Position numbers and translations under genes: made by a program
Virus record (IMG/VR): IMGVR_UViG_3300032327_000191
Reading direction: 5' to 3' (one strand)
DNA: 64,000 bases
DNA from: an uncultured virus (IMG/VR IMGVR_UViG_3300032327_000191)
Lineage: Duplodnaviria > Heunggongvirae > Uroviricota > Caudoviricetes
Shown here: positions 1,904 to 55,432 of the stretch, piece after piece
How positions within the stretch are numbered: position 1 is the stretch's first letter
How the letters are laid out: every line of letters begins with the position of its first letter
Notes under the pieces: model-generated
What the model saw: the letters and a program-made list of their open reading frames with translations, nothing else
Database searches by the model: none
What the model was told of the DNA's origin: nothing

Positions 1904-2284
1904 ATGGAATACAACGCAGTAAGCACACAGGTCGAGACCCCTCGCTACCCCACAGAGGATTGGGTACGCGAATTGGTCAGTAGCATTATCACGCTTCACA
2001 AAGACGGCAAGATTGACTTGGCGAACGGTATGCACCACTCGCTGACAGACATTCGTATGACGTTAAGTGAAATGGCTCGTCAGGGATTCATCGAGCCAAT
2101 CATGGTCGAAAAGACCGTTGAGGTGCGCGTCACCAAAGAGATGACAGTCTCAATCGAGGTTGAGCAATCAATCTTTGACGACGCTGACGAGATTGACCTT
2201 GACGAGTACCACGACTTGATTGAGGATGAAGCAGACGGAGAATGGCGCGACTGCTGGGAAACCAACTACGAGAACATCACATAG
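1904..2284 (+). CDS. Hypothetical acidic protein
   Basis: AAGGA RBS. Confidence 0.7.
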   Translation: MEYNAVSTQVETPRYPTEDWVRELVSSIITLHKDGKIDLANGMHHSLTDIRMTLSEMARQGFIEPIMVEKTVEVRVTKEMTVSIEVEQSIFDDADEIDLDEYHDLIEDEADGEWRDCWETNYENIT

Positions 2285-2295
2285 GGAGGTTGACA

Positions 2296-2472
2296 ATGCC
2301 TAAATACAAACTCACAGCAACGTTTTACTACTGGGATTATATTGACGCTGATTGCCCTAGAGACGCTGTACAGATGTTTAAGGACAGCGTTGAGTACCAA
2401 GTGTTTGACCAAAACGACGGTTACAAAATTAAGTGGAAACAACAACAGGTAAGGGAGACCAACAATGAGTAA
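2296..2472 (+). CDS. Small protein, DpnD/PcfM-like motif
   Basis: GGAGG RBS before ATG 2296. Confidence 0.65.
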   Translation: MPKYKLTATFYYWDYIDADCPRDAVQMFKDSVEYQVFDQNDGYKIKWKQQQVRETNNE

Positions 2473-2638
2473 TCACACAGAACTCAACCTGTGGATTAGC
2501 AAGACCGCTGGTGTCCACAGAAACTACGACCTAAAGAACGCACAGTACGACCTGCTATACCGGTTGTACTACACGCTCACACCTGAGCAGAGAAAACAAA
2601 TCAACTCTGACCTGACAAGGGAGAACAGCAATGCCTAA
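2465..2638 (+). CDS. Hypothetical protein (MSNHTELNLW...)
   Basis: Read manually; AAGGGAG RBS; fills the gap between neighbours. Confidence 0.6.
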   Translation: MSNHTELNLWISKTAGVHRNYDLKNAQYDLLYRLYYTLTPEQRKQINSDLTRENSNA

Positions 2639-2807
2639 TTACACAGTCACTCTGTACGAAACTATCTACCACACCGTAGATGTCGAAGCAGATTCCGCAG
2701 ACAAAGCGGTCGCTTTGGCAATGAACACCGTTACTGGGGATGTGGGAGACTACGAAACCGAATCACAGGGTATCAACTCGTGGTCGTGGGAAATAGAGGA
2801 AGCGTGA
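2631..2807 (+). CDS. Small protein, DpnD/PcfM-like motif (MPNYTVTL...VEADSADKA)
   Basis: Read manually; AAGGGAG RBS; TGATG coupling. Confidence 0.65.
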   Translation: MPNYTVTLYETIYHTVDVEADSADKAVALAMNTVTGDVGDYETESQGINSWSWEIEEA

Positions 2808-3067
2808 TGACTAAACAATACTTACCAATTCTTGACTTTGACCTTGATTCAGCCTTTGTTCACATCGAGACCAACGGAACTTTGTTTAACCTGTGCTACA
2901 CAGACGGCATCAATGAGTGGAGTGAGCCGTACCCTGCTCTGTCTGTGGCTATCATGCGTCTCGCTGTCCTCACAGAGTGCGATGACAAAGGTACGCTCAT
3001 GTTCCAACACAACCATTTGACATTCTCCGACCACGCAACCGAATTCATTTACAGAGAGGTTATCTAA
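2807..3067 (+). CDS. Hypothetical protein
   Basis: ATG 2807 coupled to upstream stop. Confidence 0.65.
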   Translation: MTKQYLPILDFDLDSAFVHIETNGTLFNLCYTDGINEWSEPYPALSVAIMRLAVLTECDDKGTLMFQHNHLTFSDHATEFIYREVI

Positions 3068-3318
3068 TGTCCAGTAGTGGAATCACTTACTTCGTTGTTG
3101 CCTACGACAACGACACCATGCGATTCACCGTTGACGAAGCCAAGCGTAGCGAGATGTTTCGTTGCGACACTTGGGACACAGTAGACGAGTGCTGGTGCTA
3201 CCTAGACACCAACCTTGATATGCCAGATGACATGAAAAGTCTGACCTACGGACTGACCCAGATTCTCGAAGAAGCACAGAAAGGAGACGGATATGAGTAC
3301 AACCTCGGTATCGATTAA
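3067..3318 (+). CDS. Hypothetical protein
   Basis: TAATG coupling; GAGG RBS. Confidence 0.65.
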   Translation: MSSSGITYFVVAYDNDTMRFTVDEAKRSEMFRCDTWDTVDECWCYLDTNLDMPDDMKSLTYGLTQILEEAQKGDGYEYNLGID

Positions 3319-3577
3319 GGACTATCAATGCCCCGAATGTGGCGCGACTTACGCCAGCAAGTCATCGGAGTGCTGTGACGAGTGTGTAGATACATTCTAT
3401 GTCGCAGATGAATTCCCGAGCAATGTCCAGCGGTTGCCAGAAACTCTGGTTACTCTCCCTCGCGTTTACCTGATTACACTCAGAGTCACAGACAAAGACA
3501 TTGACTACTCAAAGTTGCGATGGCTTTTGGAAGAAGCAGGACACATTCTCAACATCAAGGAGATTGACAATGAGTAA
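3293..3577 (+). CDS. Zinc-ribbon protein (CPEC...CDEC)
   Basis: AGGAG RBS; CxxC pairs. Confidence 0.65.
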   Translation: MSTTSVSIKDYQCPECGATYASKSSECCDECVDTFYVADEFPSNVQRLPETLVTLPRVYLITLRVTDKDIDYSKLRWLLEEAGHILNIKEIDNE

Positions 3578-3764
3578 GCAAGAAAACTCGTCGGTGTACT
3601 CAATGACTGATGAAGAAATCATCGGTGCAGTAGCAATCATCTACACGCACGGCAGTCTAACCGAGCAAGAATACACAACGTGGGTCTCACGTCTGTGCGA
3701 CCAGTACGGATTCGACGAGAGCAGTCTGCTCAAGAAAGTGAAAGAGAAGGCAAACAATGTCTGA
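3570..3764 (+). CDS. Hypothetical protein
   Basis: AGGAG RBS before ATG 3570. Confidence 0.6.
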   Translation: MSKQENSSVYSMTDEEIIGAVAIIYTHGSLTEQEYTTWVSRLCDQYGFDESSLLKKVKEKANNV

Positions 3765-3867
3765 GCAACCATTGATTAGTGGTACTTGTGATTCCTGCGA
3801 GGAGTACATGATTCTCAAGTATTTTCCCGAGACCGGCAACTACCTCTGCCCCGATTGCGTGGATTGA
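3757..3867 (+). CDS. 36-aa zinc-ribbon protein (CDSC...CPDC)
   Basis: Read manually; two CxxC. Confidence 0.55.
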   Translation: MSEQPLISGTCDSCEEYMILKYFPETGNYLCPDCVD

Positions 3868-3892
3868 CAACCTGCTTACAACCCTGTAAGTT
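3864..3892 (+). promoter_or_regulatory. SigA/sigma70-type promoter TTGACA-N17-TAAGTT
   Basis: Perfect -35, 17-nt spacer and TANNNT -10 upstream of the HNH gene. Confidence 0.6.
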
Positions 3893-3925
3893 GGAACTAA
3901 CAACAACCCCATAGAAACAACTGAT

Positions 3926-4324
3926 ATGACTGATAAATTTTACGCAAAAGTCAATAAGACAGACTCGTGCTGGCTATGGACTGGTCATATAAACAATGTC
4001 GGGTATGGGAGATACAACGGAAAAGGAATTCCTAGTGGGTATGTTCACAGAACCGCCTTTTACTGGGCAAATGGATACCTTCCAGAAAAACCAAATATAG
4101 TCGGTCATCTATGTGAAGTTAGAAACTGCGTTAATCCCGAACACTTACAAGAGCAATCACAATCAGAAAATGTAAAGCAATATACATACAAAATAACTTT
4201 TTGCCCAAAGGGGCATGAGTACACAGAAAACAACACTTACATCCGACCAAATGGCGCACGGAAATGCCGTGAATGTCACCGAGTAACAACGAATAAGAAA
4301 AGGAAAAACGATAATGGGTCTTGA
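3926..4324 (+). CDS. HNH homing endonuclease with C-terminal zinc domain
   Basis: CWLWTG...YG...HR...HLC...CVNPEHL...EN; CPKGH...CREC. Confidence 0.9.
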   Translation: MTDKFYAKVNKTDSCWLWTGHINNVGYGRYNGKGIPSGYVHRTAFYWANGYLPEKPNIVGHLCEVRNCVNPEHLQEQSQSENVKQYTYKITFCPKGHEYTENNTYIRPNGARKCRECHRVTTNKKRKNDNGS

Positions 4325-4793
4325 CCAATATCTATTCGCTAACAAGCACCTCAACGGATACGACTACGACTGGAAAACGGATGTGCCGTTGCCCACACCC
4401 GAATTCGATGCGGTTATGACTGCCACAGGTCTTGAGCGCACCGACTTCCAGACTGATATGCCGTCTGTACAACTTTCGTTTAAGGTCGGTTACTGGCGCA
4501 AGCAGAACGCAATCCACAACTGGTTCGTTGACACCGTAGGTAATGGCGAGGACAACTGCCAGCCATACTACGTCAGTCGTTCTGACCTAGATGAATTGGT
4601 CTCTTTGTGCCAGTCTGCTCTGGCTGACAAGAACCCAGACATCTTGCCCCCTATGGACGGATTCTTCTTTGGCTCTACCGAGATAGATGACACCTACTGG
4701 TGGAGTATCCAGTACACGCTGGATATGGTCTCCGCCATTCTCGACAACCCAAAGTTTGCAGACTGCGACTTTGAGTATCAGGCTTCGTGGTAA
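4314..4793 (+). CDS. Conserved phage hypothetical protein (MGLDQY...YWRK.NAIH.WF...YQASW)
   Basis: Recognised widespread phage motif; function unknown. Confidence 0.8.
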   Translation: MGLDQYLFANKHLNGYDYDWKTDVPLPTPEFDAVMTATGLERTDFQTDMPSVQLSFKVGYWRKQNAIHNWFVDTVGNGEDNCQPYYVSRSDLDELVSLCQSALADKNPDILPPMDGFFFGSTEIDDTYWWSIQYTLDMVSAILDNPKFADCDFEYQASW

Positions 4794-4802
4794 GGACACA
4801 CA

Positions 4803-5282
4803 ATGCTAACTTTCGACAACGAACTGCAAGCCGTGCGTGACGCATCTGGCTTCACCGAAGAACAACTGCTCATTCTTGAGTCTGAGTTTGAGACCGCGTA
4901 TGACGAATCACAGAAACTACTCAACAACATTGACGCTCTGTGGGAATTCCAAGACGAGTTACGTAGTATCTCTAAGCGCGACAGTTTCCGTGACGCGCTT
5001 GTGCGTATGGGAGAACGCAAATTTGTCAGCCTACTGAGTGGAATCAATGAGACTCAGGCGCAGGTAGACAGGTGTGTACGCAACGAACACGAACGTTACT
5101 TCGAGTCTCTTGACACTCTGGAATCAATCGTTCACGAGTGTGTCAAGAACGGTGTGCTTCACCAAAATGCACCGTGGGAACTCTCCAATGGGCGTATGTT
5201 CCCCTCTGCTACACGCATCATGAAGCACCGCACCGACCTGAAAAACGTCATCATCGCACGAGAGATACGGGACAATGACTGA
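4803..5282 (+). CDS. Hypothetical helical protein
   Basis: AAGGA RBS. Confidence 0.7.
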   Translation: MLTFDNELQAVRDASGFTEEQLLILESEFETAYDESQKLLNNIDALWEFQDELRSISKRDSFRDALVRMGERKFVSLLSGINETQAQVDRCVRNEHERYFESLDTLESIVHECVKNGVLHQNAPWELSNGRMFPSATRIMKHRTDLKNVIIAREIRDND

Positions 5283-5469
5283 GAAAAGCGAACACATCAT
5301 TAGGCAAGAACACTTCGTCTCTGGTTGGGAAAGCGGAGAGGAAGCCGAGCGCAGTCGTATCATTGCTCTGCTGGAAAATATGCGTGATGAATGTCAGGAA
5401 GCAGATGACCTTCACGGCGCGACTATTGTTCGCGTTGCTCAGACGCTTATTAAGGGAGAGAACAAATGA
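5275..5469 (+). CDS. Small ERxRII..LL...LIKGE family protein
   Basis: Motif shared with four genes at 20.4-21.5 kb. Confidence 0.7.
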   Translation: MTEKSEHIIRQEHFVSGWESGEEAERSRIIALLENMRDECQEADDLHGATIVRVAQTLIKGENK

Positions 5470-6092
5470 GTGAGCCAATCTATGCGTTCCCTCTGGGAGA
5501 TGACTACCGCGTAGCCGTATACGCCGACCCTGATGCCGAATGGTATCCCCCGTACGAGAACTGGGAGAGTGTAGGTATTCACACTCTGACCATGAGCGAG
5601 GACAACACCCCTATCTACCACACCCCTGTGGGTGCAGAGTCAGTAAGTGAGTGGCTTGTCAATCACTACGCAGGTGTAGATGTTCACACAGGCGCACACA
5701 GCGACCACCTTGAGCGAGGTATGTTCGATTACTTTAAATCTCTTGGCACTCAGGCTTGTCTCCTCGCTATGAATGGTCACTTGAGCAGTCAATGGGGAAT
5801 CGTACTCTTGTACAACGCAGTCAAAGACGAGGTAGATATTGCCCGCAACAAACTTGACAACCACGCCAGCGAACTAACAGACTGGTGGCGTGGGGACGTG
5901 TACATGGCGCAGATTCAGAAACGGACTGTGTACCGTGCAGACAACAACAAGATGGTGATTCTCTGGGAACGCGCTGACGATGTACAGCCCAACACAGCAG
6001 GTGGACTGTACCTGTCTGGAGATGCAACCTTAAACAACGTTCTTCGTGGCATTGGATGGATAGATACCGAACACTTTTGGGAGAACAACTAA
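5466..6092 (+). CDS. Hypothetical early protein, paralogue of 321-908
   Basis: WWRGDVY...QKRTVY...GGL. Confidence 0.75.
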   Translation: MSEPIYAFPLGDDYRVAVYADPDAEWYPPYENWESVGIHTLTMSEDNTPIYHTPVGAESVSEWLVNHYAGVDVHTGAHSDHLERGMFDYFKSLGTQACLLAMNGHLSSQWGIVLLYNAVKDEVDIARNKLDNHASELTDWWRGDVYMAQIQKRTVYRADNNKMVILWERADDVQPNTAGGLYLSGDATLNNVLRGIGWIDTEHFWENN

Positions 6093-6280
6093 TGAGTACA
6101 TGGCAAGACGATGACGAAGTAGTCACCACTTACCGCACCATACAGCAGATTAAGTCAGAGTTTTATCAAGAAGGTGTGAAGTCTATGGAGAGTAAAGTAT
6201 TCAGTCTCCAAGAACAACTCCGGGCATCTCAGGCTCTTACCGAACGACTCATGAACGAACGCAAAGAAGGGAAAAAATAA
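6092..6280 (+). CDS. Small coiled-coil protein
   Basis: TAATG coupling. Confidence 0.6.
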   Translation: MSTWQDDDEVVTTYRTIQQIKSEFYQEGVKSMESKVFSLQEQLRASQALTERLMNERKEGKK

Positions 6281-6615
6281 TGGAAATACCACCCAACGAA
6301 CTGGGTTACGACCTTAACGTCTATGACCGAGGTGGAGACCTGAACGACTACGCTGTTGGCTCTGAGGAGTGGGTAATCCTTGTCCACCATCTCGAACTGG
6401 GTTACGACAAGCAGTTACAGACTGGGGAATGGATTGAGGGCATTGAGTATGTTCTAACCCCCAACGAGTCAGCGCAACTAACGCTTGGTCTCACGCCCGA
6501 GCAAGGTGGGCAGTATGACTGTGACACCGACTTCTTCATCGACCCTGCTGGATTCCTTGATGTCTACAAAGACATCCCCAACGGTGTACGCGAATTCGTA
6601 CAGCAATTCATCTAG
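6280..6615 (+). CDS. Hypothetical acidic protein
   Basis: TAATG coupling. Confidence 0.65.
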   Translation: MEIPPNELGYDLNVYDRGGDLNDYAVGSEEWVILVHHLELGYDKQLQTGEWIEGIEYVLTPNESAQLTLGLTPEQGGQYDCDTDFFIDPAGFLDVYKDIPNGVREFVQQFI

Positions 6616-7375: not shown

Positions 7376-7648
7376 ATGCACAATCTGGAAGATGCACTCT
7401 GCGCCCAAACTGACCCTGACGCATTCTTTGAAGAAGCTTCCCCAAATGCACAAGTCTTTGCCGTCAGGCTTTGCGTTAAGTGCCCCTTGAAAAAGCAGTG
7501 CCTTGAGACGGCTCTCAAGACCCCATACATGGATGACTACGGAGTATGGGGCGGGACAACAAGAGCAGAGCGTAGGCGTATGCGAACAGAGAGAAACAGG
7601 CAGTACAGGCTGCTAGAAGGGACAACCAATGTTGTACACAACGATTAA
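7376..7648 (+). CDS. whiB: WhiB-family transcription factor
   Basis: C...DPDAFF...CxxC.....C; GVWGG turn; basic tail. Confidence 0.95.
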   Translation: MHNLEDALCAQTDPDAFFEEASPNAQVFAVRLCVKCPLKKQCLETALKTPYMDDYGVWGGTTRAERRRMRTERNRQYRLLEGTTNVVHND

Positions 7649-7662
7649 GGAGACACTGACTA

Positions 7663-7866
7663 ATGCAGTTAAACGAATGGCTGACCGCGCACGAGGTCGC
7701 AGAGTACGCGAGTATTCCCTACCCACACCTTTGGACTTATCAAAAGCGAGGCATCCTTCCAATGCCCGACCAGTACATCGGGAACAAGCCCCTATGGAGT
7801 CGCAGTCTTATCGAGTCGTGGAACTTCGAATGGAATCGCCGGACTCGGCAGGAAACTAAAGAATGA
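7663..7866 (+). CDS. AlpA/MerR-like HTH DNA-binding protein
   Basis: LTAHEVAEY...G.LP.PD..IG..PLW...I..W; AGGAG RBS. Confidence 0.85.
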   Translation: MQLNEWLTAHEVAEYASIPYPHLWTYQKRGILPMPDQYIGNKPLWSRSLIESWNFEWNRRTRQETKE

Positions 7867-8456
7867 AAAAGTATCAAGCAGTAGCAATAGTCTTTCTACT
7901 TGTACTCAGTCTCGGGGCATTCCCAGCCAATTATCTGGATGGGTCAAAGTACAACCATTATCAGTCAAAGCCTGTTTCAACACAAACCGTGACGGCTAAA
8001 GGCAAAGAGGTGAATGTGGCTCGGGGTCTAGGCATCTACATCCCAAGCATGATTTACCCAGTCGGTCGATACGTTCCCGTGACATCGGGCTTTGGGTATC
8101 GAACTGCACCCTGCGCAACGTGCTCTAGTAACCACGAAGGATTAGACTTCAATCCCGGCTATGGAACGCCAGTTTATTCAGCAACAGATGGGACAGTAAT
8201 CTGGGTAGGAATGGAAGGAAGTCTTGGCTATCACGTAGTCATAGCAGATGCAGGGACATGGCAACTCTACTACGGGCATATGATAGATGGGTCAGCCCCA
8301 TCAAGCGTCATCATCGGAAGCACCATCAAGAAGGGGGACTTGATTGGTAAGGTCGGCAGCACAGGGCAGTCAACTGGGGCGCACCTGCACTTTGCCATCC
8401 AAGATGGAAAAGCCTTTGTAGACCCTTACCCACTACTCCAAAAGTATGCAGAATAG
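7863..8456 (+). CDS. M23 peptidase with N-terminal signal/TM segment
   Basis: HEGLD (HxxxD), YGH and HLH motifs; hydrophobic N-terminus. Confidence 0.92.
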   Translation: MKKYQAVAIVFLLVLSLGAFPANYLDGSKYNHYQSKPVSTQTVTAKGKEVNVARGLGIYIPSMIYPVGRYVPVTSGFGYRTAPCATCSSNHEGLDFNPGYGTPVYSATDGTVIWVGMEGSLGYHVVIADAGTWQLYYGHMIDGSAPSSVIIGSTIKKGDLIGKVGSTGQSTGAHLHFAIQDGKAFVDPYPLLQKYAE

Positions 8457-8476: not shown

Positions 8477-8506
8477 GTGTCGTTTACTGTTATCAGATAA
8501 CTAGTC
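8477..8506. repeat. Palindromic site GTTATCAGATAAC, copy 1, at the convergent strand junction
   Basis: gtgtcgtttACTGTTATCAGATAACtagtc; near-identical copy at 9138-9166. Confidence 0.7.
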
Positions 8507-10003
8507 TTCGATGGATTGGCGGATAATCGTGGTAGTTTGTTCTTCGTTTAGAGGCTGTTCCATCTCTCTCAGAGCCGTAGCCCTATCACCGAAAATGGCA
8601 CTCAACACTCCACCAGAGGACTGGCGTTCAGCAGTGATGCGAATGAACTCTTTGTTCTCTTCCAACTCTTTTACATTCTTGACTAACTTGAACAATCTAT
8701 CCATCTCTTGGGACACATTGGGGTCAGCATACCCGCCGTTCAATTCCTCTTGGAAGCGCATAAATGCTACTCTTTGCCCCTGCATTTCAATGACCGCAGT
8801 AAGCAGAGCCTTCAATTGTTCTTTGGTCCGAACCTCTACTGGCAAGTTAAACGCACAGGTCGTATCAGGCTTGAAAGCAGGGCAATTGGAAGCCACAAAA
8901 CAGGTGTTGCAATTGCGCAAAGACACCCCATTGGACTGCACCACAGGGGCGTCTCTAAGCACCTCATTGCCAGCGTCATCTACGTCTACAATGGTCTTCA
9001 TTGAGTACCCGAAAACAGGCAACGGAGTGACCTCTGAGGGGTCTCTAGGGGTCACTTCTGAGGCTTCATGTTTCCGCATCTCAGACCCACTGTTATTAGA
9101 AGACCCTACCCCTAATTCCATCAAACCGCTGTATAGGGTGTCATCACTGTTATCAGATAACAAGTCATCTTTGCCACCTTTGAGTACACGTAAGTCTGGT
9201 TTATCTTTATCCATTGACCTCTCCAACTGTAAAAATGACCAGATAGCAACCCGTGTAGATTCCAAAGTGTCATCCGCAACAAACAAATCAAAGTCTAATC
9301 CAGCAGACAGCACTTGCGCTCGGTATCTCGGTCGAGCCTGTGCCTTCATCTTCTTTGGATACCGCATGAGTTTCATGCCATCCCAGATGATTGTCTCGCC
9401 TCTACGCATGGGGGAAATCCAAGCGAGTGTAGATGCAGTAGCAAATGGAATCTGGCGCAGGTTGTCGGGTTTAGCAGTAGCAAGTGCATGGAAAGCAACA
9501 CCATGCTTCTGAGCCAGAGAGCGAGTAACCGTAGCAAGGTTAGTCACAGACTCTATAGTCTCGTAAGGGATAGCAACGTTAGCATAATCAGAAGCCCATC
9601 GTTGCAAGAGCATCTGCCCGTAAGACTCTCGCCAGACTACCCAGAGCTTAGGGTCATTCTCGTAAGCAGCTCGGTTCTGCTGAATAGCTGGAAGCCCGAG
9701 CACCTGACTGTCGAACTCCACCCAGCCCTCGATGCGGTCGTAGTTGATAGCGATGAAGTCCTCGTAGTCCGCAGCGTAATCCTCCAGTTCCTGACGAGAC
9801 AAGTTAGCTTTATCAGCTTGGACAGCTCCAGAGTCTACCCATACTTTCATGTCAGGCAGGAAGTGCTCACCAATCAAATACTCTTTGGTCTTGGGAAGCC
9901 CACGTTTGCGCAAACCCCAGTAGTTGAGCATAACGTGCTGAACACCGCTCCTCTCCAAGAGAGTGCGGTTACTTGGAATCTCTACTCCGCCAAAGATAAT
10001 CAC
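8501..10003 (-). CDS. TGT/DpdA-like TIM-barrel protein with C-terminal Cys4 and helical domain
   Basis: VWVDSGA motif, FHAL strand, S..W.SP.R.G; CNTC.....C........C. Confidence 0.6.
   Translation of the reverse strand: MIIFGGVEIPSNRTLLERSGVQHVMLNYWGLRKRGLPKTKEYLIGEHFLPDMKVWVDSGAVQADKANLSRQELEDYAADYEDFIAINYDRIEGWVEFDSQVLGLPAIQQNRAAYENDPKLWVVWRESYGQMLLQRWASDYANVAIPYETIESVTNLATVTRSLAQKHGVAFHALATAKPDNLRQIPFATASTLAWISPMRRGETIIWDGMKLMRYPKKMKAQARPRYRAQVLSAGLDFDLFVADDTLESTRVAIWSFLQLERSMDKDKPDLRVLKGGKDDLLSDNSDDTLYSGLMELGVGSSNNSGSEMRKHEASEVTPRDPSEVTPLPVFGYSMKTIVDVDDAGNEVLRDAPVVQSNGVSLRNCNTCFVASNCPAFKPDTTCAFNLPVEVRTKEQLKALLTAVIEMQGQRVAFMRFQEELNGGYADPNVSQEMDRLFKLVKNVKELEENKEFIRITAERQSSGGVLSAIFGDRATALREMEQPLNEEQTTTIIRQSIED
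9138..9166. repeat. Palindromic site TGTTATCAGATAACA, copy 2
   Basis: gtgtcatcACTGTTATCAGATAACaagtc, in the inter-domain linker of the gene. Confidence 0.7.
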
Positions 10004-10021
10004 AGATTAAACCTAGTGAAT

Positions 10022-10420
10022 TTAATCATAGTTAGTGAACTGAACGGTGTGAGACTCTTTTCCAGTGAGCCTGTCTGCAAGGAGTCGATGGTGTCCCTCA
10101 GCCACCCATATCTTCCCTTGGTACTGGTAAACCTGTGGGGCGTTATGCCCGTCGTCATCCGACCATTCTTCTGGGTCATACCCGGTTTTGGCGTAGTGTG
10201 CCAACCCCCATTTACCAAAAGATGTTTGGCTAGTATGCAGGGGAACATCGGTAGACAAAGTGGTCATCTCGTGCGGCTGTTGGTACGTGTAGCCCTCTAC
10301 TTCACCAATGATATGTGGAGCGTCTTCCTTGTGAAAGACAAATCCGTGTTTCTTGGCAATAGCTGAGTCCATAGGGAGATACGGCTCAAGCTGATGCCCA
10401 ACATTTTCATCTCTCCACAT
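10022..10420 (-). CDS. ParB/Srx-like domain protein
   Basis: P.V.......WV.EGHHRL.A motif. Confidence 0.75.
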   Translation of the reverse strand: MWRDENVGHQLEPYLPMDSAIAKKHGFVFHKEDAPHIIGEVEGYTYQQPHEMTTLSTDVPLHTSQTSFGKWGLAHYAKTGYDPEEWSDDDGHNAPQVYQYQGKIWVAEGHHRLLADRLTGKESHTVQFTNYD

Positions 10421-10432
10421 TACTCTCTCCTA

Positions 10433-10918
10433 TCATTCGAAGTTTAAAGTCTCTGTACGAGTGAGGCGACGGTCGGTAGTGCGAAGTTCGTTCTGCTTCT
10501 CCACAGCTTCTTCAATCTCAGACCATGCACGTACTTTACGAGGAGCATCAGGTCGAAACTCTGGTCGCAGGTAGGAAGGTTGAGCGAACATCACAGCCGC
10601 GATGCCTAGGTCAAAAGCGTAAGCCCACAGATGCGGGTCTCCTGTGATGAACAAATCGATAGCACCACGAGAGCGAGCAAAAGTAATCTGACGCTCTTCC
10701 AGACTCTCCCCAGCCAGAGCCACAGAGTTATCAATCACGTTATCGAAGTCAACGATTTTGTTTACGTTGAGCCAACGCTCGGTCTCGGCTCGCGTCATCG
10801 TTGACATATAAGTCAACTGATTATAGACAGTCAATGTAGACGCCATAATTATGCCCGTAGGGATGATTTGGTCGTCAGTATTCCGCAGAACGCCGTCTAA
10901 TTGCACCAGTATTTGCAT
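10433..10918 (-). CDS. HAD-superfamily-like protein with degenerate motif I
   Basis: ILVQLDGVLR (normally DxDG); LFITGDP. Confidence 0.65.
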   Translation of the reverse strand: MQILVQLDGVLRNTDDQIIPTGIIMASTLTVYNQLTYMSTMTRAETERWLNVNKIVDFDNVIDNSVALAGESLEERQITFARSRGAIDLFITGDPHLWAYAFDLGIAAVMFAQPSYLRPEFRPDAPRKVRAWSEIEEAVEKQNELRTTDRRLTRTETLNFE

Positions 10919-10927
10919 AGAGTCAGC

Positions 10928-11386
10928 TTAATCGTAAAATGGTTTAGAATCTTTGTTGAACTCGTCGATGTGGTTAAAAAACTGTTCCGGGGTAAACTCG
11001 CCTTTTTCATAGGGCTGTTCACCCCACTTTGCGGAATAATCGTGCATATTTGTAACGTCAATTGCGCCGTGCGCAGGGTGATGGTGGTCAATAATCGGTC
11101 CACCATGCCAAACGTGCGACCAGCCATCTGATTCTGTGTGCTTAATGTGCAAATCCCCGTGCTCATCTTCGTGAATCATGCTCGTAGGAAAGTGCTTTGC
11201 ACGAGACAGAAAAACTTGAGTTTGATGTGCTTTACGTTCTTCGTCAGTTTGCGGTGTACCGAATATCTCTGAAACTTTGTTCCACAGTTGTTCCCCCATT
11301 GCACGACCGGTCATAGCACTCTCGTCTTGTTGAGAAAAGTTGCGCCCCATAATTTCGTCAAACTGCTTACTGTCTTCAGGGTTCAT
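10928..11386 (-). CDS. His-rich hypothetical protein
   Basis: TAATG coupling; many His residues. Confidence 0.7.
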   Translation of the reverse strand: MNPEDSKQFDEIMGRNFSQQDESAMTGRAMGEQLWNKVSEIFGTPQTDEERKAHQTQVFLSRAKHFPTSMIHEDEHGDLHIKHTESDGWSHVWHGGPIIDHHHPAHGAIDVTNMHDYSAKWGEQPYEKGEFTPEQFFNHIDEFNKDSKPFYD

Positions 11387-11886
11387 TATTTAAGCTCTCT
11401 TTTCTGTACCGTACGAGCACTAACTACTTTTAAAGTATTTGGGCGTTGAATTTCTGGGTACTCAGACGCTGCATTTGCTAGACCGTTTACATATTCTTTG
11501 TCGGTGTAAAAACCTGCGCGGTGCTCTGCGCCCATCTCATCTTGCCGTTCGCGTTCAATTCTTCTGCCGTTGTGAATTCGGAGTGCGCTGAGAGCAGAGT
11601 CTTCGTTGCCACCGTGCAAATCAACTACGGCGTTGTAGTCTTCTAGTCTTTTACTCCCCAAGTAACGAGACATGGCTTTTTCGTGCGCATCTTCGCTGTC
11701 AAACAACTCTCGGTAATTACTGCCTGTTACATGAAACAGAGAACCTGTGTACTGGTGATGAGTCAAGTATCCGTGAGGAGTCTCTACAGTATCTGGGTCA
11801 ACGGGAGTTGAGTCCCCGATGTTCTTGTGCCATGTTTCTGTCCATGGGTTTTTATACGGGAGAAACTGTGCGCTGATGTCCATCAT
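11386..11886 (-). CDS. Hypothetical protein
   Basis: Coupled on both sides. Confidence 0.7.
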   Translation of the reverse strand: MMDISAQFLPYKNPWTETWHKNIGDSTPVDPDTVETPHGYLTHHQYTGSLFHVTGSNYRELFDSEDAHEKAMSRYLGSKRLEDYNAVVDLHGGNEDSALSALRIHNGRRIERERQDEMGAEHRAGFYTDKEYVNGLANAASEYPEIQRPNTLKVVSARTVQKRELK

Positions 11887-12779
11887 GACCTGCCGTAGAG
11901 TGCGGATGTGCGGAGGGCTAAATGAGCATCAGGGAGACTAGCCCCGTACAGGGACTTCTCTCGCTGTTCCTTGACGGCGTCAACTCGTTGGCGAATCTGA
12001 CGCAGTGCTTGAACCGTACCCTCACGCTTCCCTGCTTGCCATCTGTAGTTATTAAAGTCTGAGTAACCTTCACCAGTATCTGAGAACGCCAGAGCGCGGT
12101 TGCCATGAATCTCGTCGTAAAGTGCTGACCCTTGCTGGGATGCGGCTTCCAAACGAGCCTCTGCATTACGGCGGAGTGCCTCGTTGTAAGCAGTCGAGGA
12201 CTCGGTGAGCGCAGCTTGGAAACGTGTAACGACCTGCTGCGTCATGGCACGGTCACTGTTTACAATCTCTTCCCACTCAGGCTTGTATGGGGCGTGTTGG
12301 GCAGGATTGGGAGAAACAGTCCACTCATCGTATTTAACGTCGTATGCCGCGTACGGGTGGATGCTACGGATGTCATCTGTCTGAAGTGCGTAAAACGTCA
12401 GTTCGTAACCGTTCCAGTTTTCCGTCTCAGGGTGTAACCCCTCGTGAATATCGTCGTTAATCTGCTCTGAGATTTCACGGTCTGACAGACCCATAAACTC
12501 TGGGTTAGCTTTGCGGAACTGTACGTAGTCCACACCAAATAAACAGTCAAGGTCTCCGGGCTGTCTGGCGGCTTCCCATTGGTACGAAACCCCTGACCCA
12601 GCCAGCCATGCGTGAGACCACAGCTCTGGATGACGATACTTGTGACTCAGAAACCCAGCTAACAGAGACTGAATACCCTGTCGTGCCCAGCTTTTGAGGT
12701 GGCGACCTTCAAACAAGTTGGGGTCAAGGTTGGTTGACGGCTCGCTAAAGTACGATGTAGGCGAACCGGTTATATCCAT
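11883..12779 (-). CDS. Pol-beta-superfamily nucleotidyltransferase
   Basis: LAGS..SY.......GDLD (GS...DxD); ELTFY; AYD...W. Confidence 0.8.
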   Translation of the reverse strand: MDITGSPTSYFSEPSTNLDPNLFEGRHLKSWARQGIQSLLAGFLSHKYRHPELWSHAWLAGSGVSYQWEAARQPGDLDCLFGVDYVQFRKANPEFMGLSDREISEQINDDIHEGLHPETENWNGYELTFYALQTDDIRSIHPYAAYDVKYDEWTVSPNPAQHAPYKPEWEEIVNSDRAMTQQVVTRFQAALTESSTAYNEALRRNAEARLEAASQQGSALYDEIHGNRALAFSDTGEGYSDFNNYRWQAGKREGTVQALRQIRQRVDAVKEQREKSLYGASLPDAHLALRTSALYGRS

Positions 12780-12808
12780 AAGTAAAGTTTAGTGCATATA
12801 TGCTGACT

Positions 12809-13084
12809 TTACTCGGTATCAGGTGTAGCCGTTCGTTCCTTAAGGGCGTTAGACACCTTGTCTGCTACCGTGGGTTCTGGGGTAGGCATAAGAGCGTTTA
12901 CTGCCTGAGTAATGCCTTCCATGAGCAGTGAACGCTCAAGGTCAGCAACGCACTTGCGGGAGGAATCAATGATGTCAAAGATTCCAGCCTCTTTCTTGAC
13001 CTCAACACCCTCAGGTACTTTGGTGTCAATTTTGATTGAGCCGTCTTCATCAACAGCAATGCTGTACTGGTAATTAGTTGTCAT
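12809..13084 (-). CDS. Hypothetical protein
   Basis: ORF track; tight packing. Confidence 0.65.
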   Translation of the reverse strand: MTTNYQYSIAVDEDGSIKIDTKVPEGVEVKKEAGIFDIIDSSRKCVADLERSLLMEGITQAVNALMPTPEPTVADKVSNALKERTATPDTE

Positions 13085-13634
13085 AAAGACCCTGCTTCAT
13101 ACGGGCGTTGGTAATTGCAACGCTGTGGAACGGACAAAAGTTACAAAGGTAAATCTTGGGACCCGGTGCTTGGTCCGGTGATTCCAACCCTACATCCTTA
13201 CGCTCTTTGGCAGTCTTTGGCAAGAGGCGTTTCTCCGGAGATTTGTAGTCAGAACACCCGATTTGTGGTCGTTTGTGCTTTTCGTAGCACGACATAGCGT
13301 CTTCTGCAAACTGCATTTTGCTGGAGTAGTAGTCCTTTTCAGGAGTCATAGCGTCGAGACCTTCTGAACTACCGCCCTTGAGTTGTGTAATAATCTCCTT
13401 GCGGTACGCGGGGTTACCCCACGTCTTTACTGGGAGAATAAACAACTTACCTTTGTGGGGTTCTCCTGATGGGAACTTGTGCTTCTCTACAGAGATTTCA
13501 AGCAAGTAGTCATGCTCTGGTTTTCCCTCGTATGGGGGTAGTTCTTCCATCGTGTTGCAAACGAGACAATACAACAGCCGGATAACCGGTCCGTCATGCA
13601 TCTCGCGTTTACCAAGAAGTGGTACATCAACCAT
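13074..13634 (-). CDS. Zinc-binding hypothetical protein (CxxC..H..H; C..H..C..CxxC)
   Basis: AGGAG RBS; Cys/His pattern. Confidence 0.75.
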   Translation of the reverse strand: MVDVPLLGKREMHDGPVIRLLYCLVCNTMEELPPYEGKPEHDYLLEISVEKHKFPSGEPHKGKLFILPVKTWGNPAYRKEIITQLKGGSSEGLDAMTPEKDYYSSKMQFAEDAMSCYEKHKRPQIGCSDYKSPEKRLLPKTAKERKDVGLESPDQAPGPKIYLCNFCPFHSVAITNARMKQGLYDN

Positions 13635-47237: not shown

Positions 47238-48319
47238 TATTCCACCAATCCAGTAAAGTCAGGGATACGCTTGAACGATATTTTCACCGTACTAAAGATT
47301 GGGACCATACGAACATCAAACATTGTGTGGTTAACACTAAAACCGTCGATAGTTCCCACGTATTTTAGAGACTTACCCAGACTCAGTTTGACAGGACGAC
47401 CCGTAAGCCATCCCAAGTCAGCGGTAGTTCCTCGAAGAGAAGTGTCCGACTTAAACCCAATAACGCTAGAGAGCAAGAACTCTACGTCGTACATTGTTCC
47501 TTTGTTGTAGATTTCTTTTTCTTCTGTAGTATCTTTGGGCATTCGAGGTGAGTAGATGTTTTTGTTTTTGTACTGAGACTTGATAGTCCCATCCGCGTTG
47601 TAGTATTTGAAATCCGCGACTCGGTTTAGTACAAGGTCAAAGTCAATAACACTTTGGCTACCTTGTTGACCCAAAAGATTAAAGGGGTCTCCACCAGACG
47701 CACTAAGCGCAATGTCAATTGCGGGAGTACCGGCGTATGTCATGCTGACACTAGTCGGATTGTAATGGAATTGGAAAGAGTATAGCTCCCACTGAGCAGG
47801 TTTTAAGTTACTTCCCTCAGCGGGGGTAATTGCGTCCATCGTCGTGTCCGGGTTTGGTGGAATGAACAAACTAATCATTCCTTTAGTTTTACCGGCAGCA
47901 CTCCACAACTGTGATGAAGACTCTACTTTAACAGGCTTGTCTTGAATAGCTCCTGAAGCATCTTTTGACAGTAGCTTGTGGAATGATGCTTTTGGACTAA
48001 AGTAAGCATCAGTAACACACCCCACATTGTAGGAAAGACCTTTTCCAGAGTAATCAAGTTGAGGAGGTGGAGGAGGGGGTTGAGGGCTATATTCCCCCAA
48101 TAACTTTTGAGCTTCCTCGGAGTAATCGATGTTTACAGCACCAGTAACTGGTCTTCCCGTGAAAACACTGGTGCTCATTGCCGGGACATATGGGCGACCA
48201 GTAAACGTAGAAGAAGTTATTATTGGGGTGGTGTTAGTTGCAGGACGATACTGCCAAAATGAGGGGTTACTTGGATGTCCTCCAACAATGTACCTTAAAT
48301 ACGGATTTTTTATGAGCAT
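47237..48319 (-). CDS. Tail tube initiator-like protein
   Basis: FQF.YNP..V; V.H..F...M.P; follows tape measure gene. Confidence 0.7.
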   Translation of the reverse strand: MLIKNPYLRYIVGGHPSNPSFWQYRPATNTTPIITSSTFTGRPYVPAMSTSVFTGRPVTGAVNIDYSEEAQKLLGEYSPQPPPPPPQLDYSGKGLSYNVGCVTDAYFSPKASFHKLLSKDASGAIQDKPVKVESSSQLWSAAGKTKGMISLFIPPNPDTTMDAITPAEGSNLKPAQWELYSFQFHYNPTSVSMTYAGTPAIDIALSASGGDPFNLLGQQGSQSVIDFDLVLNRVADFKYYNADGTIKSQYKNKNIYSPRMPKDTTEEKEIYNKGTMYDVEFLLSSVIGFKSDTSLRGTTADLGWLTGRPVKLSLGKSLKYVGTIDGFSVNHTMFDVRMVPIFSTVKISFKRIPDFTGLVE

Positions 48320-50943
48320 TATTTCATCCCCATGTTCTTAATCAAAGTGTCTTTTTCAAGCATGTCCTTCACAATGTTTGCAAAACGACGAGCTTCAGTT
48401 TCTGAGGCTTGAGCAATGCTGAGATTGATAGTCACGTTGTTTCCGCCACCCTTACCAAGACCACCCTGCTTGAGTGCAGTACGCCACACCTCGGCTTGCT
48501 CGGAGGTAAGGATAGCTTCACCCGAGTGGACGTTAACGGGACCGTCGTTTGCAACATACGGGTCACCAGTCTTAGCTCGACGAGCACCGGGCAAGTAGAT
48601 TCCCATAGAGCTACTGGTCAGGTTGTTCTTTCCACTTGCGCCCGTTCCTAAAGCCATGTTCCCCTTAGTCTGGGAGTTTGACCCCATAGCCATAGCTTTG
48701 AACCCACTGTTGGCACCACCACCGCCAACTTCTGCACCACGGTAACTAGAAACCGTCATGATTCCGGCTTTAGCTCGTGAGTCACTGATGCCAGCCATGT
48801 CAGAAGCTGGGGCGGAACTTCCAGATGCAGTAGCGGAGTCATTTTGCGAACCGTATGTTGCGCTAGAAGTTCCATAAAGAACTTTCATGGGGTCAATAAG
48901 TTTTCCAGAAGCATCACGGACACCAAAGTGAAGGTGGGCACCTGTCGAAGTTCCAGTGCTACCTACGTACCCAATAACCTGACCCTGAACAACTTTTTTA
49001 CCAACCGATGTAGCAATTCGAGATTGATGCCCGTAAATAGTCACATAACCATTTGCGTGTTTAATTTCAACACAGTTACCAAGCCCACCATTATTTCCAG
49101 CCATAATAACGTCACCATCAGCCGATGCCATGATGGGCGTACCCATTCCCACACCAATGTCGATACCTTCGTGGTAAGAAGATGCTCCGGGCTTAGGAGG
49201 AGTACGGGGACCAAACCCGTCACTAACAAGTGAGGCGTTACCTGCGGGCCATGTAAATTTAACTGTATTCTGTTGACCAGTTCCTGTTGGTCCTTGCGCA
49301 TTGATTGTGCTGTTAGTGCCTCCTCCCCCAAGAGTTTTTCCGGGGTTATTTACGTCCCCAGTACCTAAAAAATTTCCTGCGTAAGACAACGTCGCACCAA
49401 AGTACCTACCTAGGTTGTTTAACGCAGTAGGTATAAAGTTCAATGCTTGGTCCATAAAGCCCAGAGAAGACAGTTTGTTGTTGTCTTGCATATTTTGTTT
49501 AAAAGCAACATCAAAAAGATTAGGTGCTTCAGTTTTATTTTGCCTAGCAGATATAAGCATTCCGTTATAGTCATTAGCTGCTACAGTCCCACTAGCAACA
49601 GTGGATAGTGCCGCTGTTATTAGGCTAGCTTTACCAACAGACTTGGCTACGCTACCCAGTAAACTTCCCCCAGATTTTGAAGCTACCATAGAAGAGACCC
49701 CACCGGCTGCTCCTCTCAAACCTCCACCACCAATTGCCCCCCCTCCAATAGCTGCAATTACTGTACCTATTACACCAGCAAGAGCAGTGAGTGCGGTAGC
49801 CACCATTTCTTCAGCAGCTTTAACCGAGGCAGCACCGGCTACGCTTCCTTCTAGTGCAGCTTTCATAGCTTTAAAAGAACCAACGGGTCCTGCTGCCAAA
49901 TCTCCAGCTTCTTTGCTCAGTCTTTCAATTTCTGGAATAGTATTTTTTATTGCTTGGATGTAGTTCTCTTGCGCAGCATTTTGTGCCCCAGCATCGGCGC
50001 TAAGACTTTGATATCCCATTTGAGCAGGGTTAAAACCGTTTTTCTCAGCAAATGCTTTTACAGACTTTTCATTTTCTAAATCAAGATTTACACCCTGCGA
50101 ACGAGCAAGCATGAACATGTGCATCATATGTTGTTGGTCTTCGCTAAGTCCAAGCCCAGAAAGAGATGCCCCAAGCTTTCCTCGACGAAACGACTCGTTA
50201 ACTTGGTCTGAAGTTGCCATGGATTGACCCGCAGTCAATCGGTTAGCAATTTCGCCAAACAACTGACCCTGACTCTTTGCCTGTCCCGTACGAGGGTCAG
50301 ACGTGTAAATGCCAAGGTTACGAAGAAGGTCACTAGAAGTTTTACCGCTAGTCAGTCCCTCCAAAGCAACAGCGGAACGTTCATTGCTCATGTTCAAATA
50401 CTTGGCAGAGTTAGCAACAGCCCCAACAGTACCGAGGTAGTTACTCATATTTTGAGTCATACCACGGCTACCAAGGTACTCAGCAGTGCGATAGTCACTT
50501 CCCGCAGAAGTAATCGCTCCGTTAAGGGCGCTAAACGTGGCGGATTGCATCCGCTTAGCCCCACCACCCATGGTTCCGTAAAGACCTGCGTTGTAGTACC
50601 CAGTGGCACGGTCAACAGTGGCTTGCACGTCTGGCATAGCCTCATACTTGCCTTGAACGTAACTAATCCCAGCAGAAAATGCTCCAAGCCCCAACTGAGC
50701 CATGATGGGTTTGACCATACCCCGCATGCCCATGCCGGTTTCGCCCTCATTGGGTTGTCGAACTGGGGCAAGACTGTTGCCCATAATAGGACCACCAGAG
50801 GGCGAGTTACCGGAGAATGTTCCTCCACTAACTCCCTTGGCGCTCTTTGTTAAATCACCAAGAGCACCGGTAGCGGATTTAACTCCGGATTCAAAAGCTT
50901 TTAGGTCTTGAATAGTACCGTCGAGTTCATTTCCGTCACTCAT
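48319..50943 (-). CDS. Tape measure protein with M23 peptidase domain
   Basis: Long Ala/Gly helical region; HEGID, YGH and HLH; VH.GE.IL. Confidence 0.88.
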   Translation of the reverse strand: MSDGNELDGTIQDLKAFESGVKSATGALGDLTKSAKGVSGGTFSGNSPSGGPIMGNSLAPVRQPNEGETGMGMRGMVKPIMAQLGLGAFSAGISYVQGKYEAMPDVQATVDRATGYYNAGLYGTMGGGAKRMQSATFSALNGAITSAGSDYRTAEYLGSRGMTQNMSNYLGTVGAVANSAKYLNMSNERSAVALEGLTSGKTSSDLLRNLGIYTSDPRTGQAKSQGQLFGEIANRLTAGQSMATSDQVNESFRRGKLGASLSGLGLSEDQQHMMHMFMLARSQGVNLDLENEKSVKAFAEKNGFNPAQMGYQSLSADAGAQNAAQENYIQAIKNTIPEIERLSKEAGDLAAGPVGSFKAMKAALEGSVAGAASVKAAEEMVATALTALAGVIGTVIAAIGGGAIGGGGLRGAAGGVSSMVASKSGGSLLGSVAKSVGKASLITAALSTVASGTVAANDYNGMLISARQNKTEAPNLFDVAFKQNMQDNNKLSSLGFMDQALNFIPTALNNLGRYFGATLSYAGNFLGTGDVNNPGKTLGGGGTNSTINAQGPTGTGQQNTVKFTWPAGNASLVSDGFGPRTPPKPGASSYHEGIDIGVGMGTPIMASADGDVIMAGNNGGLGNCVEIKHANGYVTIYGHQSRIATSVGKKVVQGQVIGYVGSTGTSTGAHLHFGVRDASGKLIDPMKVLYGTSSATYGSQNDSATASGSSAPASDMAGISDSRAKAGIMTVSSYRGAEVGGGGANSGFKAMAMGSNSQTKGNMALGTGASGKNNLTSSSMGIYLPGARRAKTGDPYVANDGPVNVHSGEAILTSEQAEVWRTALKQGGLGKGGGNNVTINLSIAQASETEARRFANIVKDMLEKDTLIKNMGMK

Positions 50944-54485: not shown

Positions 54486-55136
54486 TTATTGCGTAATAGT
54501 AAAGTTTGGAACTGGAGTAAAGTAAGGGTCGCTTGGACGCCCTCCTTGTTCCACAACCAAAGGTGGGGTATTGATTTTTACCGATAGAACTTCGTAAAGT
54601 TCTGTTAGTTTTCCTTGCACGACCTCCGAGGAAACCCGTACTGTTATTGCGTTTACGTACAAGCGCTTTGCTTGTTCGGTGACATCACGCTTTGTGACAT
54701 CCATGACATCCAATCGGCGGATTGTTCCATCATCCGTTTCAAGGTAGCCAAATCTGAGAGGGAACTTCGTCGTGAGCAACTGAGCAACAATTGCCCGGTC
54801 ATGACGCGGGTGGCGAGCATAACTAGTGATTTGATAGTCAATGTTTACTGGGATAGGAAGGTTGGTAATAAACCCAACTACAGATGGGGAAGAGGGCGTA
54901 TGAGGGATGTAGGGCGCAGACGTCAATCCTCGGTGTTCCCGAGACGTATCCCGTTGAACATCAATCATGTCAATTGTGATGTATGGGTAAGACTGGTTAC
55001 GGATTTCTTGGTCTGGCTGTCCGTACCATACACCCACAGTTCGTGTGGCAACTTCCCCGTTGGACTTTTGGTCTTCAACCGTCATGCCTTGAAGTTTTTC
55101 ACGCAACGCTTTGTCTTCAGAAAGAAGGAATGTCAT
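54486..55136 (-). CDS. Tail terminator/completion protein
   Basis: YP.ITID; P....YQI; immediately upstream of sheath. Confidence 0.65.
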   Translation of the reverse strand: MTFLLSEDKALREKLQGMTVEDQKSNGEVATRTVGVWYGQPDQEIRNQSYPYITIDMIDVQRDTSREHRGLTSAPYIPHTPSSPSVVGFITNLPIPVNIDYQITSYARHPRHDRAIVAQLLTTKFPLRFGYLETDDGTIRRLDVMDVTKRDVTEQAKRLYVNAITVRVSSEVVQGKLTELYEVLSVKINTPPLVVEQGGRPSDPYFTPVPNFTITQ

Positions 55137-55432
55137 TTCTTTCCTCCCCGAAGTGCGCGACTAACAACCCGTCTGGATGCCTCGCGGTCATTGTTCAACT
55201 TGCGAATGACAGCAGTAGGTCGGCTGTGCTCAGTTCCAAACTCATGCTTGAAAACTTGCTCGGCGTAATCAGGGTGAACGTGTACGCCCATCTTCTGGTC
55301 TTTGTACTCGACGCGAATGTTGTTGACAACATCCTTGTCCCAACCATTTGACAAAGCGCGGTTGCGCAACTCAGACGTCAGTTCCTGAGCAGTCTGGTGC
55401 TTAAGATTGTGAATGAACTTTGCAATACTCAT
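55133..55432 (-). CDS. Neck/tail completion protein
   Basis: E.GT...P motif; position. Confidence 0.6.
   Translation of the reverse strand: MSIAKFIHNLKHQTAQELTSELRNRALSNGWDKDVVNNIRVEYKDQKMGVHVHPDYAEQVFKHEFGTEHSRPTAVIRKLNNDREASRRVVSRALRGGKK

Follow-up and report, generated by a model that had tools for sequence, protein, structure and literature searches.

The 64,000 nucleotide stretch analysed here, from the uncultured virus record IMG/VR IMGVR_UViG_3300032327_000191 and called the window throughout, carries six minus-strand open reading frames (ORFs) at 8501–12779. They share one orientation, as had been described for four of them in a first-pass annotation made from the sequence alone, and neighbouring ORFs are separated by gaps or overlaps of no more than 18 nt. 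The conserved unit extends past 12779 to 13634, with all of its genes on the minus strand. The gene at 8501 encodes a 500 aa protein, the only one of the six with a match in a family library (phrog_887, 'queuine tRNA-ribosyltransferase'). There is no significant match in Pfam, NCBIfam, or PADLOC for any of the six. Both its fold and its sequence profile make this protein a true homologue of phage DpdA, with a serine in place of the aspartate that acts as the nucleophile in DpdA.

The match to phrog_887 (E 9.5e-57) covers residues 1–492 against profile positions 11–495 of 509; taken separately, the tail matches at E 3.8e-37 and the barrel at E 3.9e-18. In the AlphaFold2 (AF2) model, built from a 76-sequence alignment and with a mean predicted local distance difference test (pLDDT) score of 80.9, residues 1–266 (9206–10003) form a TIM barrel with pLDDT >94. 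An acidic linker of low confidence follows at residues 267–336 (8996–9205; net charge -5), of which residues 274–312 are disordered with pLDDT <50, and the acidic tail domain at residues 337–500 (8504–8995) is made up of a beta-hairpin, a Cys cluster, and two long helices, with pLDDT of ~70–85.

When the barrel was compared with ~48,000 PDB representatives using VIA, a structure search that is independent of Foldseek, the top match was the archaeosine tRNA-guanine transglycosylase (TGT) 1iq8 (Z 17.4, root mean square deviation (rmsd) 3.4, 253 aligned). This was followed by DpdA 7ui4 (Z 16.4), with Cap10 (9ntn_B; Z 15.7, rmsd 3.6, 239 aligned) as the third-best structural match, and there were further matches to bacterial TGT (3unt, Z 15.6) and to QTRT2 (Z 14.5); unrelated TIM barrels score no more than 13.5. 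The TGT-like barrel that had been suggested for this protein is therefore supported by AF2, VIA, Foldseek (E 1.3e-5 against TGT), and hhalign in agreement, the last aligning the protein with DpdA of phage 9g (probability 96.6%, E 5.3e-10, 202 columns) and with gp21 of Bacillus phage BCD7 (probability 99.9%, E 1e-32, 262 columns). The DSGA motif noted with it (V-D57-S58-G59-A) lies at the end of barrel strand 3, and the fused Cys4/helical domain is likewise present. The Pfam TGT family is not matched by the window protein, a PDB profile search with the barrel family was also empty, and PDB sequence searches with the single protein or with a tail profile gave no match. The profile and structural results show that the 500 aa protein descends from a DNA guanine transglycosylase of the BCD7 type, and the window module is best read as the form that the long-form phage DpdA (phrog_887) takes in actinophages.

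In DpdA and TGT, the residues D95 (acid/base), D130 (base recognition), and D256 (nucleophile) are reported to be invariant, and DpdA to lose all exchange activity when either the acid/base or the nucleophile residue is changed to alanine (PMC10164549). The window barrel carries D57-S58-G59, E96, D98, and H172, and it shares with 9g DpdA (gp03) and with the DpdA of S. Montevideo (7UI4) the TGT-type barrel, the DSG, and the 'S-x-x-S-W' strand-8 motif. Those two proteins differ from it in having the nucleophile Asp (D256 in 7UI4, the counterpart of D280 in TGT) and the structural Zn site CXCX2CX22H, which is absent from the window protein, where there is instead a CX2CX5CX8C cluster in the tail. 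The unusual reading of the second Asp motif as ATASTLAW is accounted for by Ser191 of 'FATASTLAW', which in concordant profile-profile and MAFFT alignments stands in the nucleophile's place, against the Asp of 'CDSSSW' in 9g and of 'TGDSTTW' in BCD7.

Among 68 distinct relatives encoded in viral loci, position 191 is Ser in 59, Thr in 8, Ala in 1, and never Asp (0/68). Across 76 family representatives there are 37 with Ser, 11 with Ala, 10 with Thr, and 9 with Gly, and just one with Asp: P0140, 43% identical to the window protein, which reads 'TADSGSW' here. In the cultured Streptomyces phages the residue is Ser in BRock and Ala in GiJojo. Asp is found in 9g, BCD7, and Bacteroides phage BS162P1, all three of which carry preQ0 genes.

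There are no Que or FolE families among the 64 window ORFs scanned, in line with the first-pass annotation, which had remarked upon the absence of queC/D/E and folE from the window, and the relatives are also without them in the records searched. The QueC and PTPS/QueD models each matched 0/5 records (four relatives that are at least 99% complete, and BRock), as did those for FolE (GTP cyclohydrolase I) and radical SAM (three complete relatives, the 38%-complete fragment G001, and BRock); the control genomes did match. With the nucleophile Asp gone and no 7-deazaguanine genes in the phage, canonical 7-deazaguanine exchange by the window protein is very unlikely.

It might still be proposed that this is a canonical or near-canonical DpdA, which inserts host-made preQ0 or another 7-deazaguanine into the phage DNA. 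Indeed, BRock is listed with DpdA alone in supplementary file 7 of Hutinet et al. 2019, where BCD7 is listed with DpdA, FolE, QueD, QueE, and QueC, and the main text of that paper proposes that in DpdA-only phages the base is possibly supplied by the host. Against this, the nucleophile position holds Asp in only 0/68 and 1/76 of the sequences compared, the acid/base Asp is variable, and the CXCX2CX22H site is absent. These aspartates are reported to be invariant and essential (PMC10164549), and an exchange reaction of this kind has very little probability.

The remaining residues of the pocket could instead belong to an enzyme of altered chemistry, either a hydrolase/glycosylase or a dissociative transglycosylase acting on DNA or on free guanine nucleotides, in which D57 would be the general base and the HAD-motif protein and nucleotidyltransferase (NTase) encoded upstream would handle the sugar-phosphate or nucleotide. 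D57, D98, and H172 are kept in 52, 65, and 66 of the 68 close relatives, the DSG is intact in the window, position 191 is Ser or Thr in 67/68, and selection on the gene is very strong (dN/dS, the ratio of nonsynonymous to synonymous substitution rates, is 0.05 between the window and locus L003), all of which would suit such an enzyme. The spread of residues at position 191 across the 76 representatives is not that of a conserved catalytic residue, however, and D57 itself is present in 51 of these, the other 25 having H, E, Y, or N in its place; a clade at ~50% identity has H-P-G or H-A-G for the DSG motif. Taken with the inactivity in exchange of the DpdA nucleophile mutant (PMC10164549), this makes altered chemistry unlikely.

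The tail domain contains a Cys4 cluster, C365-x2-C368-x5-C374-x8-C383 (CX2CX5CPX8C; 8855–8911), and a GGYADPN motif. All four Cys are invariant, in 76/76 representatives and in 68/68 relatives from viral loci. The same domain is fused to the barrel in BCD7 gp21 (YP_007005872, 757 aa), which like the window protein belongs to phrog_887 and has the homologous barrel and the Cys4/GGxADP tail. Unlike the window protein, gp21 keeps the nucleophile Asp, and its gene directly follows those for FolE, QueC, QueE, and QueD. In BS162P1 the two halves of the window protein correspond to separate adjacent genes, 00087 and 00088, for a barrel of 275 aa with the Asp (phrog_887 positions 38–273) and, directly after it, a tail of 251 aa with the same Cys4 (positions 365–486). 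These lie between a QueC-like and a QueE-like gene, in what is a genuine deazaguanine cluster. The split DpdA is at 4851–6483 of locus L083, where the genes are all annotated as hypothetical.

The presence of this tail in the preQ0 clusters of BCD7 and BS162P1 indicates that it is old and separable and that it predates the loss of the nucleophile. The tail would then belong to the modification system, rather than having been acquired after catalysis was lost. An Atlas search with the tail domain gave a score of 0.75, which is at chance level.

A different role for the tail is suggested by phrog_6902, labelled 'terminase small subunit', which is matched by 21 of 55 tails at E<=0.1, the best at E 1.7e-4; these matches are weak and the label is unchecked. 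The tail could on this basis be akin to a small terminase, with the dead barrel recognising phage DNA for the packaging motor, and in the complete relative G003 there is no recognisable small terminase family in the ORFs upstream of the large terminase gene. The DpdA-like gene is, however, ~31–39 kb from the large terminase gene in G002, G003, and BRock, and the occurrence of the same tail with the preQ0-cluster DpdAs, whether fused as in BCD7 or as a separate gene as in BS162P1, does not fit with a role in packaging. The tail is also acidic, with a net charge of -8 in the window and a median of -5 over 55 members. Packaging or genome recognition is therefore quite unlikely.

Linkage of the genes was assessed with tblastn, the proteins of the window being the queries and the targets being 79 related viral loci together with two loci of Streptomyces phages. 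The first-pass annotation had grouped the DpdA-like, ParB-like, HAD-like, and NTase genes as one candidate modification module; what is conserved together is a set made up of the genes for the DpdA-like protein, the HAD-motif protein, p186, usually the NTase, and usually p91, without the ParB-motif ORF (1/79) or p152 and p166 (3/79 each; for p166 these are L003, L004, and L024). The HAD-motif gene is present in 77/79 viral loci, and the NTase gene and p186 are each present in 75/79. The four loci without p186 are truncated, and truncated loci (L006, L008, L010, and L018) account for all of the absences other than that of the NTase from L037, which keeps the p186, HAD-motif, and DpdA-like genes and has no NTase homologue in its 41 kb partial record.

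The four-gene set of p186, NTase, HAD-motif, and DpdA-like genes is also found in BRock, GiJojo, and the distant locus L087. Homologues of p186 are present in both of the distant loci L086 and L087. L086 (record G006, 100% complete by CheckV) has p186 along with the HAD-motif and DpdA-like genes, and the entire 100 kb record is without an NTase homologue. A complete relative without the NTase means that this enzyme cannot be essential to the core function. On the best-supported reading, the DpdA-like protein would be coupled most closely to p186 and the HAD-motif protein, and the NTase would be an enzymatic partner that is often present but can be dispensed with.

The corresponding dN/dS values between the window and L003 for the NTase, HAD-motif, and p186 genes are 0.058, 0.032, and 0.035. 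This demonstrates strong purifying selection across the module, and the DpdA-like gene, despite its missing nucleophile, is not decaying.

Gene order is most constant next to the DpdA-like gene, where the HAD-motif gene lies directly upstream, within 60 nt, in 74/77 loci. Among the loci compared, the window alone has more than 400 nt between these two genes. The junction of the NTase and HAD-motif genes is an insertion hot spot: the two are within 60 nt of each other in 36/73 loci, 61–400 nt apart in 27/73, and more than 400 nt apart in 10, including the window, where p166 (11386–11886) and p152 (10928–11386) are inserted side by side. There is no family match for p152 in Pfam, PHROGs, or NCBIfam. 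An NCBIfam match of p166 to XopAF (E 0.0045) scores 17 bits against a cut-off of 200 and was put down to chance. Upstream of the NTase gene, the small acidic protein p91 (12809–13084) has 30 distinct homologues, is conserved among closer relatives only, and has no family match in Pfam, PHROGs, or NCBIfam; its gene overlaps that of p186 by 11 nt. A scan for promoters and terminators gave counts at chance level (8 against 7.7 and 7 against 7.6).

The protein p186 (13074–13634), with homologues that include BRock gp42 and one in GiJojo, has six invariant Cys (C23, C26, C116, C127, C164, and C167) and an invariant H52 across 51 sequences, with no Pfam, PHROG, or PDB match. The HAD-motif protein (161 aa; 10433–10918), the tight upstream partner of the DpdA-like gene, takes its name from a motif I of Q6-L-D8-G-V-L, in which the first Asp, the nucleophile, is missing. 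This is also so in 42/50 of its relatives, the first Asp being kept in 8/50 and the canonical D-x-D in 4/50. Pfam was matched by 0/52 members of this family at E<=1, a PDB profile search was empty, and 0/5 records matched NT5C; the homologue in GiJojo, gp179, is annotated as 'hydrolase'. The earlier description of this protein as HAD-like, which was drawn from the motif, is therefore not upheld by profile or family searches, nor by the motif itself as it lacks the nucleophile.

The ParB/Srx-motif ORF (132 aa, WVAEGHHRLLADRL; 10022–10420) is a lineage-specific insertion at the junction of the HAD-motif and DpdA-like genes. Its motif, noted in the first-pass annotation as EGHHR and reading EGHHRLLA in the window, is seen as WVAEGHHRLxAxRL, invariant in 5/5 known homologues, and is what the putative ParB/Srx-like label is drawn from; there is no match in Pfam, NCBIfam, PHROGs, PADLOC, or PDB. 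A search of 5.8 billion proteins found five homologue clusters, none with a Pfam domain. Bacterial DpdA is reported to require the ParB-like ATPase DpdB, and a similar pairing had been suggested here. The only viral locus of the 79 to carry this ORF is L004, a locus 100% identical to the window, and the ORF is present in 0/2 of the Streptomyces phage loci. It is an accessory singleton rather than a DpdB-like partner, and like p152 and p166 it is an accessory insertion, outside the machine. The window DpdA-like protein differs from 9g DpdA and bacterial DpdA in having Ser191 and a different Cys4 cluster, placed in a tail detached from the barrel, and in being without a ParB-like partner that is conserved.

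The remaining member of the set, a Pol-beta-type NTase of 298 aa (11883–12779), begins MDITGSPTSYFS. The GS..DxD motif noted in it is borne out: G61, S62, D76, D78, and E126 (G61-S62 ... D76-L77-D78) are invariant in 50/50 aligned sequences, with E126 as the putative third metal ligand. The AF2 model (mean pLDDT 90.9) has an alpha/beta N-lobe at 30–155 and a helical bundle at 167–297. In the VIA search the N-lobe resembles minimal NTases, namely 1ylq (Z 7.0, rmsd 3.2, 89 aligned), 1no5 (Z 6.1), and the MNT antitoxin 8xeo (Z 6.0). The best Foldseek rows are also NTases, although weak (E 0.02–0.3, none at E<=1e-3). Unspecific matches of the C-terminal bundle to three-helix bundles dominate both the VIA and the Foldseek lists. 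Pfam PF01909 is not matched by the window NTase; in the Atlas, 12% of a cluster related to it carries PF01909. A search of BFVD with the model found an orthologue at E 5.8e-32, and also 10 further uncultured-phage proteins of 319–884 aa (E 3e-9 to 5e-7) with the same NTase and helical-bundle architecture, including an 812 aa protein labelled amidoligase and one labelled as an NTase-domain protein. The whole BCD7 record is without a homologue of the window NTase, and homologues of the HAD-motif protein and p186 are likewise absent from the 16 kb BCD7 locus searched; BCD7 gp15, itself annotated 'nucleotidyltransferase', is unrelated (hhalign probability 0.06%).

A TGT fold paired with an NTase has a parallel in type IV CBASS (cyclic oligonucleotide-based antiphage signalling system), where Cap10 is reported to be a TGT-fold binding protein that partners a nucleotidyltransferase (bioRxiv 10.1101/2025.04.06.647259). 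By analogy with Cap10, to which the deazaguanylated N-terminus of CdnD is bound, the barrel might hold a nucleobase-tagged or nucleotidylated terminus of the NTase or of another protein. In favour of this, Cap10 ranks third among the structural matches to the barrel, the NTase is conserved alongside the barrel in 75/79 loci, and the N-terminal segment T8-S-Y-F-S12 of the NTase is invariant (50/50). According to the same preprint, Cap10 keeps its nucleophile, D248, and needs the QueC-like Cap9, and the CD-NTase (the NTase of CBASS) has the N-terminus M(G/S)G(G/S)GG. The window system differs on each count, there being Ser191 in the barrel, no QueC-like Cap9 (0/5 records), and no such Gly-rich motif on the NTase. 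The N-lobe is also like that of the minimal MNT-type NTases rather than the CD-NTases, which are not in the VIA lists and appear only as weak Foldseek rows (CdnD and CdnG, rmsd 16–20). Since in addition the complete relative G006 has no NTase, a Cap10-like arrangement is highly improbable. The NTase, named as the partner of the DpdA-like protein in the first-pass annotation, is a frequent partner (75/79 loci) but not an obligate one.

The likeness to Cap10 might also point to an anti-defence role, in which the pocket would act as a decoy or sponge that traps a signal or base of the host, or blocks defence systems that use a TGT fold or QueC, such as Dpd and type IV CBASS. A base pocket that is retained in the absence of catalysis would be suited to this, and the module is near to accessory and variable genes, with an ArdA-like antirestriction gene ~3 kb downstream of it in GiJojo. 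Fast-evolving anti-defence genes are a poor model for this large, core-like protein, which is 50–78% identical across the 79 viral loci, and PADLOC found no match. An anti-defence function is accordingly rather improbable.

The gene content of the window identifies it as part of the genome of an uncultured myovirus, with structural genes for the tail sheath, tube, baseplate, and a collagen-like fibre and replication genes for DNA polymerase I, helicases, primase, and a UvsX-like recombinase. A WhiB regulator is encoded (Pfam E 6e-18), which would indicate an actinobacterial host. No tRNA genes were found in the window, and megablast found no near-identical DNA in the phage collection. The DpdA-like family is large: among 8,000 candidates scored, at least 1,554 clusters (90% clustering) match the window protein at E<=1e-3, the best 120 of these being 70–96% identical to it and on contigs of up to ~100 kb. 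In a library at 50% identity there are 850 representatives of the family, 221 of them at E<=1e-30.

The cultured relatives are the Streptomyces phages of the BRock group (BRock, GiJojo, LuckySocke, and Alone3), with DpdA-like proteins of ~32% identity to that of the window over 96–98% of its length, and, more distantly, BCD7. The loci of BRock (gp36–gp42) and GiJojo (gp175–gp181) are like the window in having a p186 homologue, an NTase (37–40% identity), a HAD-motif 'hydrolase', and a DpdA-like protein, which is annotated as 'queuine tRNA-ribosyltransferase' or 'dpdA-like tRNA-guanine transglycosylase'. They are unlike it in that an endolysin gene and extra ORFs are interleaved, with an ORF of 276–388 aa between the HAD-motif and DpdA-like genes. 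In these phages the module is among lysis genes (endolysin, glycoside hydrolase, and transglycosylase; 12353–13006 in the GiJojo locus L001 and 2193–5197 in the BRock locus L002).

In the window, the plus-strand genes at 7376–8456 run towards the 3' end of the DpdA-like gene, the facing stop codons being 44 nt apart; they encode WhiB (90 aa), a small helix-turn-helix/excisionase-like protein (67 aa), and an M23 peptidase (197 aa) that looks secreted. An 874 aa tail protein at 48319–50943 contains another M23 domain. The word CTY occurs on the coding strand at 8–13 kb at 25–41 per kb, like the remainder of the window, and there is no one-strand purge of CTT/CTC. On the minus strand, which is the coding one, AAG/GAG words climb at 55001–57000 to 62 and 76 per kb, against ~20–55 elsewhere, and AT skew reaches -0.26 in this region; the rise in these words probably reflects small proteins that are rich in Lys and Glu.

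The DpdA-like protein has kept its barrel, most of the base-pocket residues (D57-S58, D98, and H172), the Cys4/helical tail, and a basic helix at barrel residues 210–232 (net +8), which is its sole strongly basic conserved element. The reading tentatively preferred here, although it is held with somewhat less than even confidence, is that it is a repurposed, non-transglycosylating derivative of DpdA, which binds a base or DNA and works together with its partners. The barrel would no longer exchange bases through a covalent intermediate, and the protein may be a non-catalytic binder of guanine-type bases or of DNA, as a base-flipping reader or adaptor, perhaps acting within a complex that includes the HAD-motif protein. 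Oligomerisation or the binding of a partner could be the task of the acidic helical tail, and the NTase, where present, would be the sole source of chemistry, through nucleotidylation of a protein, a DNA end, or a small molecule.

The use of TGT folds for binding rather than for tRNA base exchange has precedents in Cap10 and in QTRT2, which is described as a TGT-fold binding subunit paired with a catalytic paralogue, unlike the window protein, which has no catalytic TGT paralogue as a partner. The first-pass annotation had offered either a non-canonical base-exchange/nucleotidylation pathway or a repurposed pseudo-enzyme complex. The pathway is weakened by the missing nucleophile, the variable D57, and the singleton ParB-motif ORF. 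The complex is the better fit, since strong purifying selection acts on all four conserved proteins even though the attacking residues are missing from two of them.

Several observations weigh against the preferred reading. The variability of D57 in the pocket would suggest that base binding is perhaps not a property of the whole family, and the acidity of the tail speaks against direct binding of DNA by this domain. In the complete genome of G006 the DpdA-like gene is accompanied by those for p186 and the HAD-motif protein but by no NTase gene, the HAD identity of the partner is putative, and a new catalytic mechanism would be compatible with the sequences. The step from no exchange by the known mechanism to the binding of DNA or a base is one that we infer. 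It has also been considered that the barrel, as a base-flipping reader, might expose specific guanines in DNA, or hold a ligand that bears guanine, so that the partners could perform a different chemistry on it; this would be a new nucleotidyl-type modification of phage DNA or protein that evolved from a 7-deazaguanine system after the base supply was lost, and it is put forward as a long shot.

In the library searched, no paper was found that notes a nucleophile-less DpdA in actinophages, although supplements beyond that of Hutinet et al. 2019 may bear on this. If the family cannot exchange bases, then 'DpdA-only' phages such as BRock would have been mis-scored as carrying modified DNA. As it stands, a large clade of phages that are abundant in lakes and soils has kept, among its best-conserved proteins, a modification enzyme without its nucleophile, and the cultured Streptomyces relatives make the function of the DpdA-like protein directly testable.

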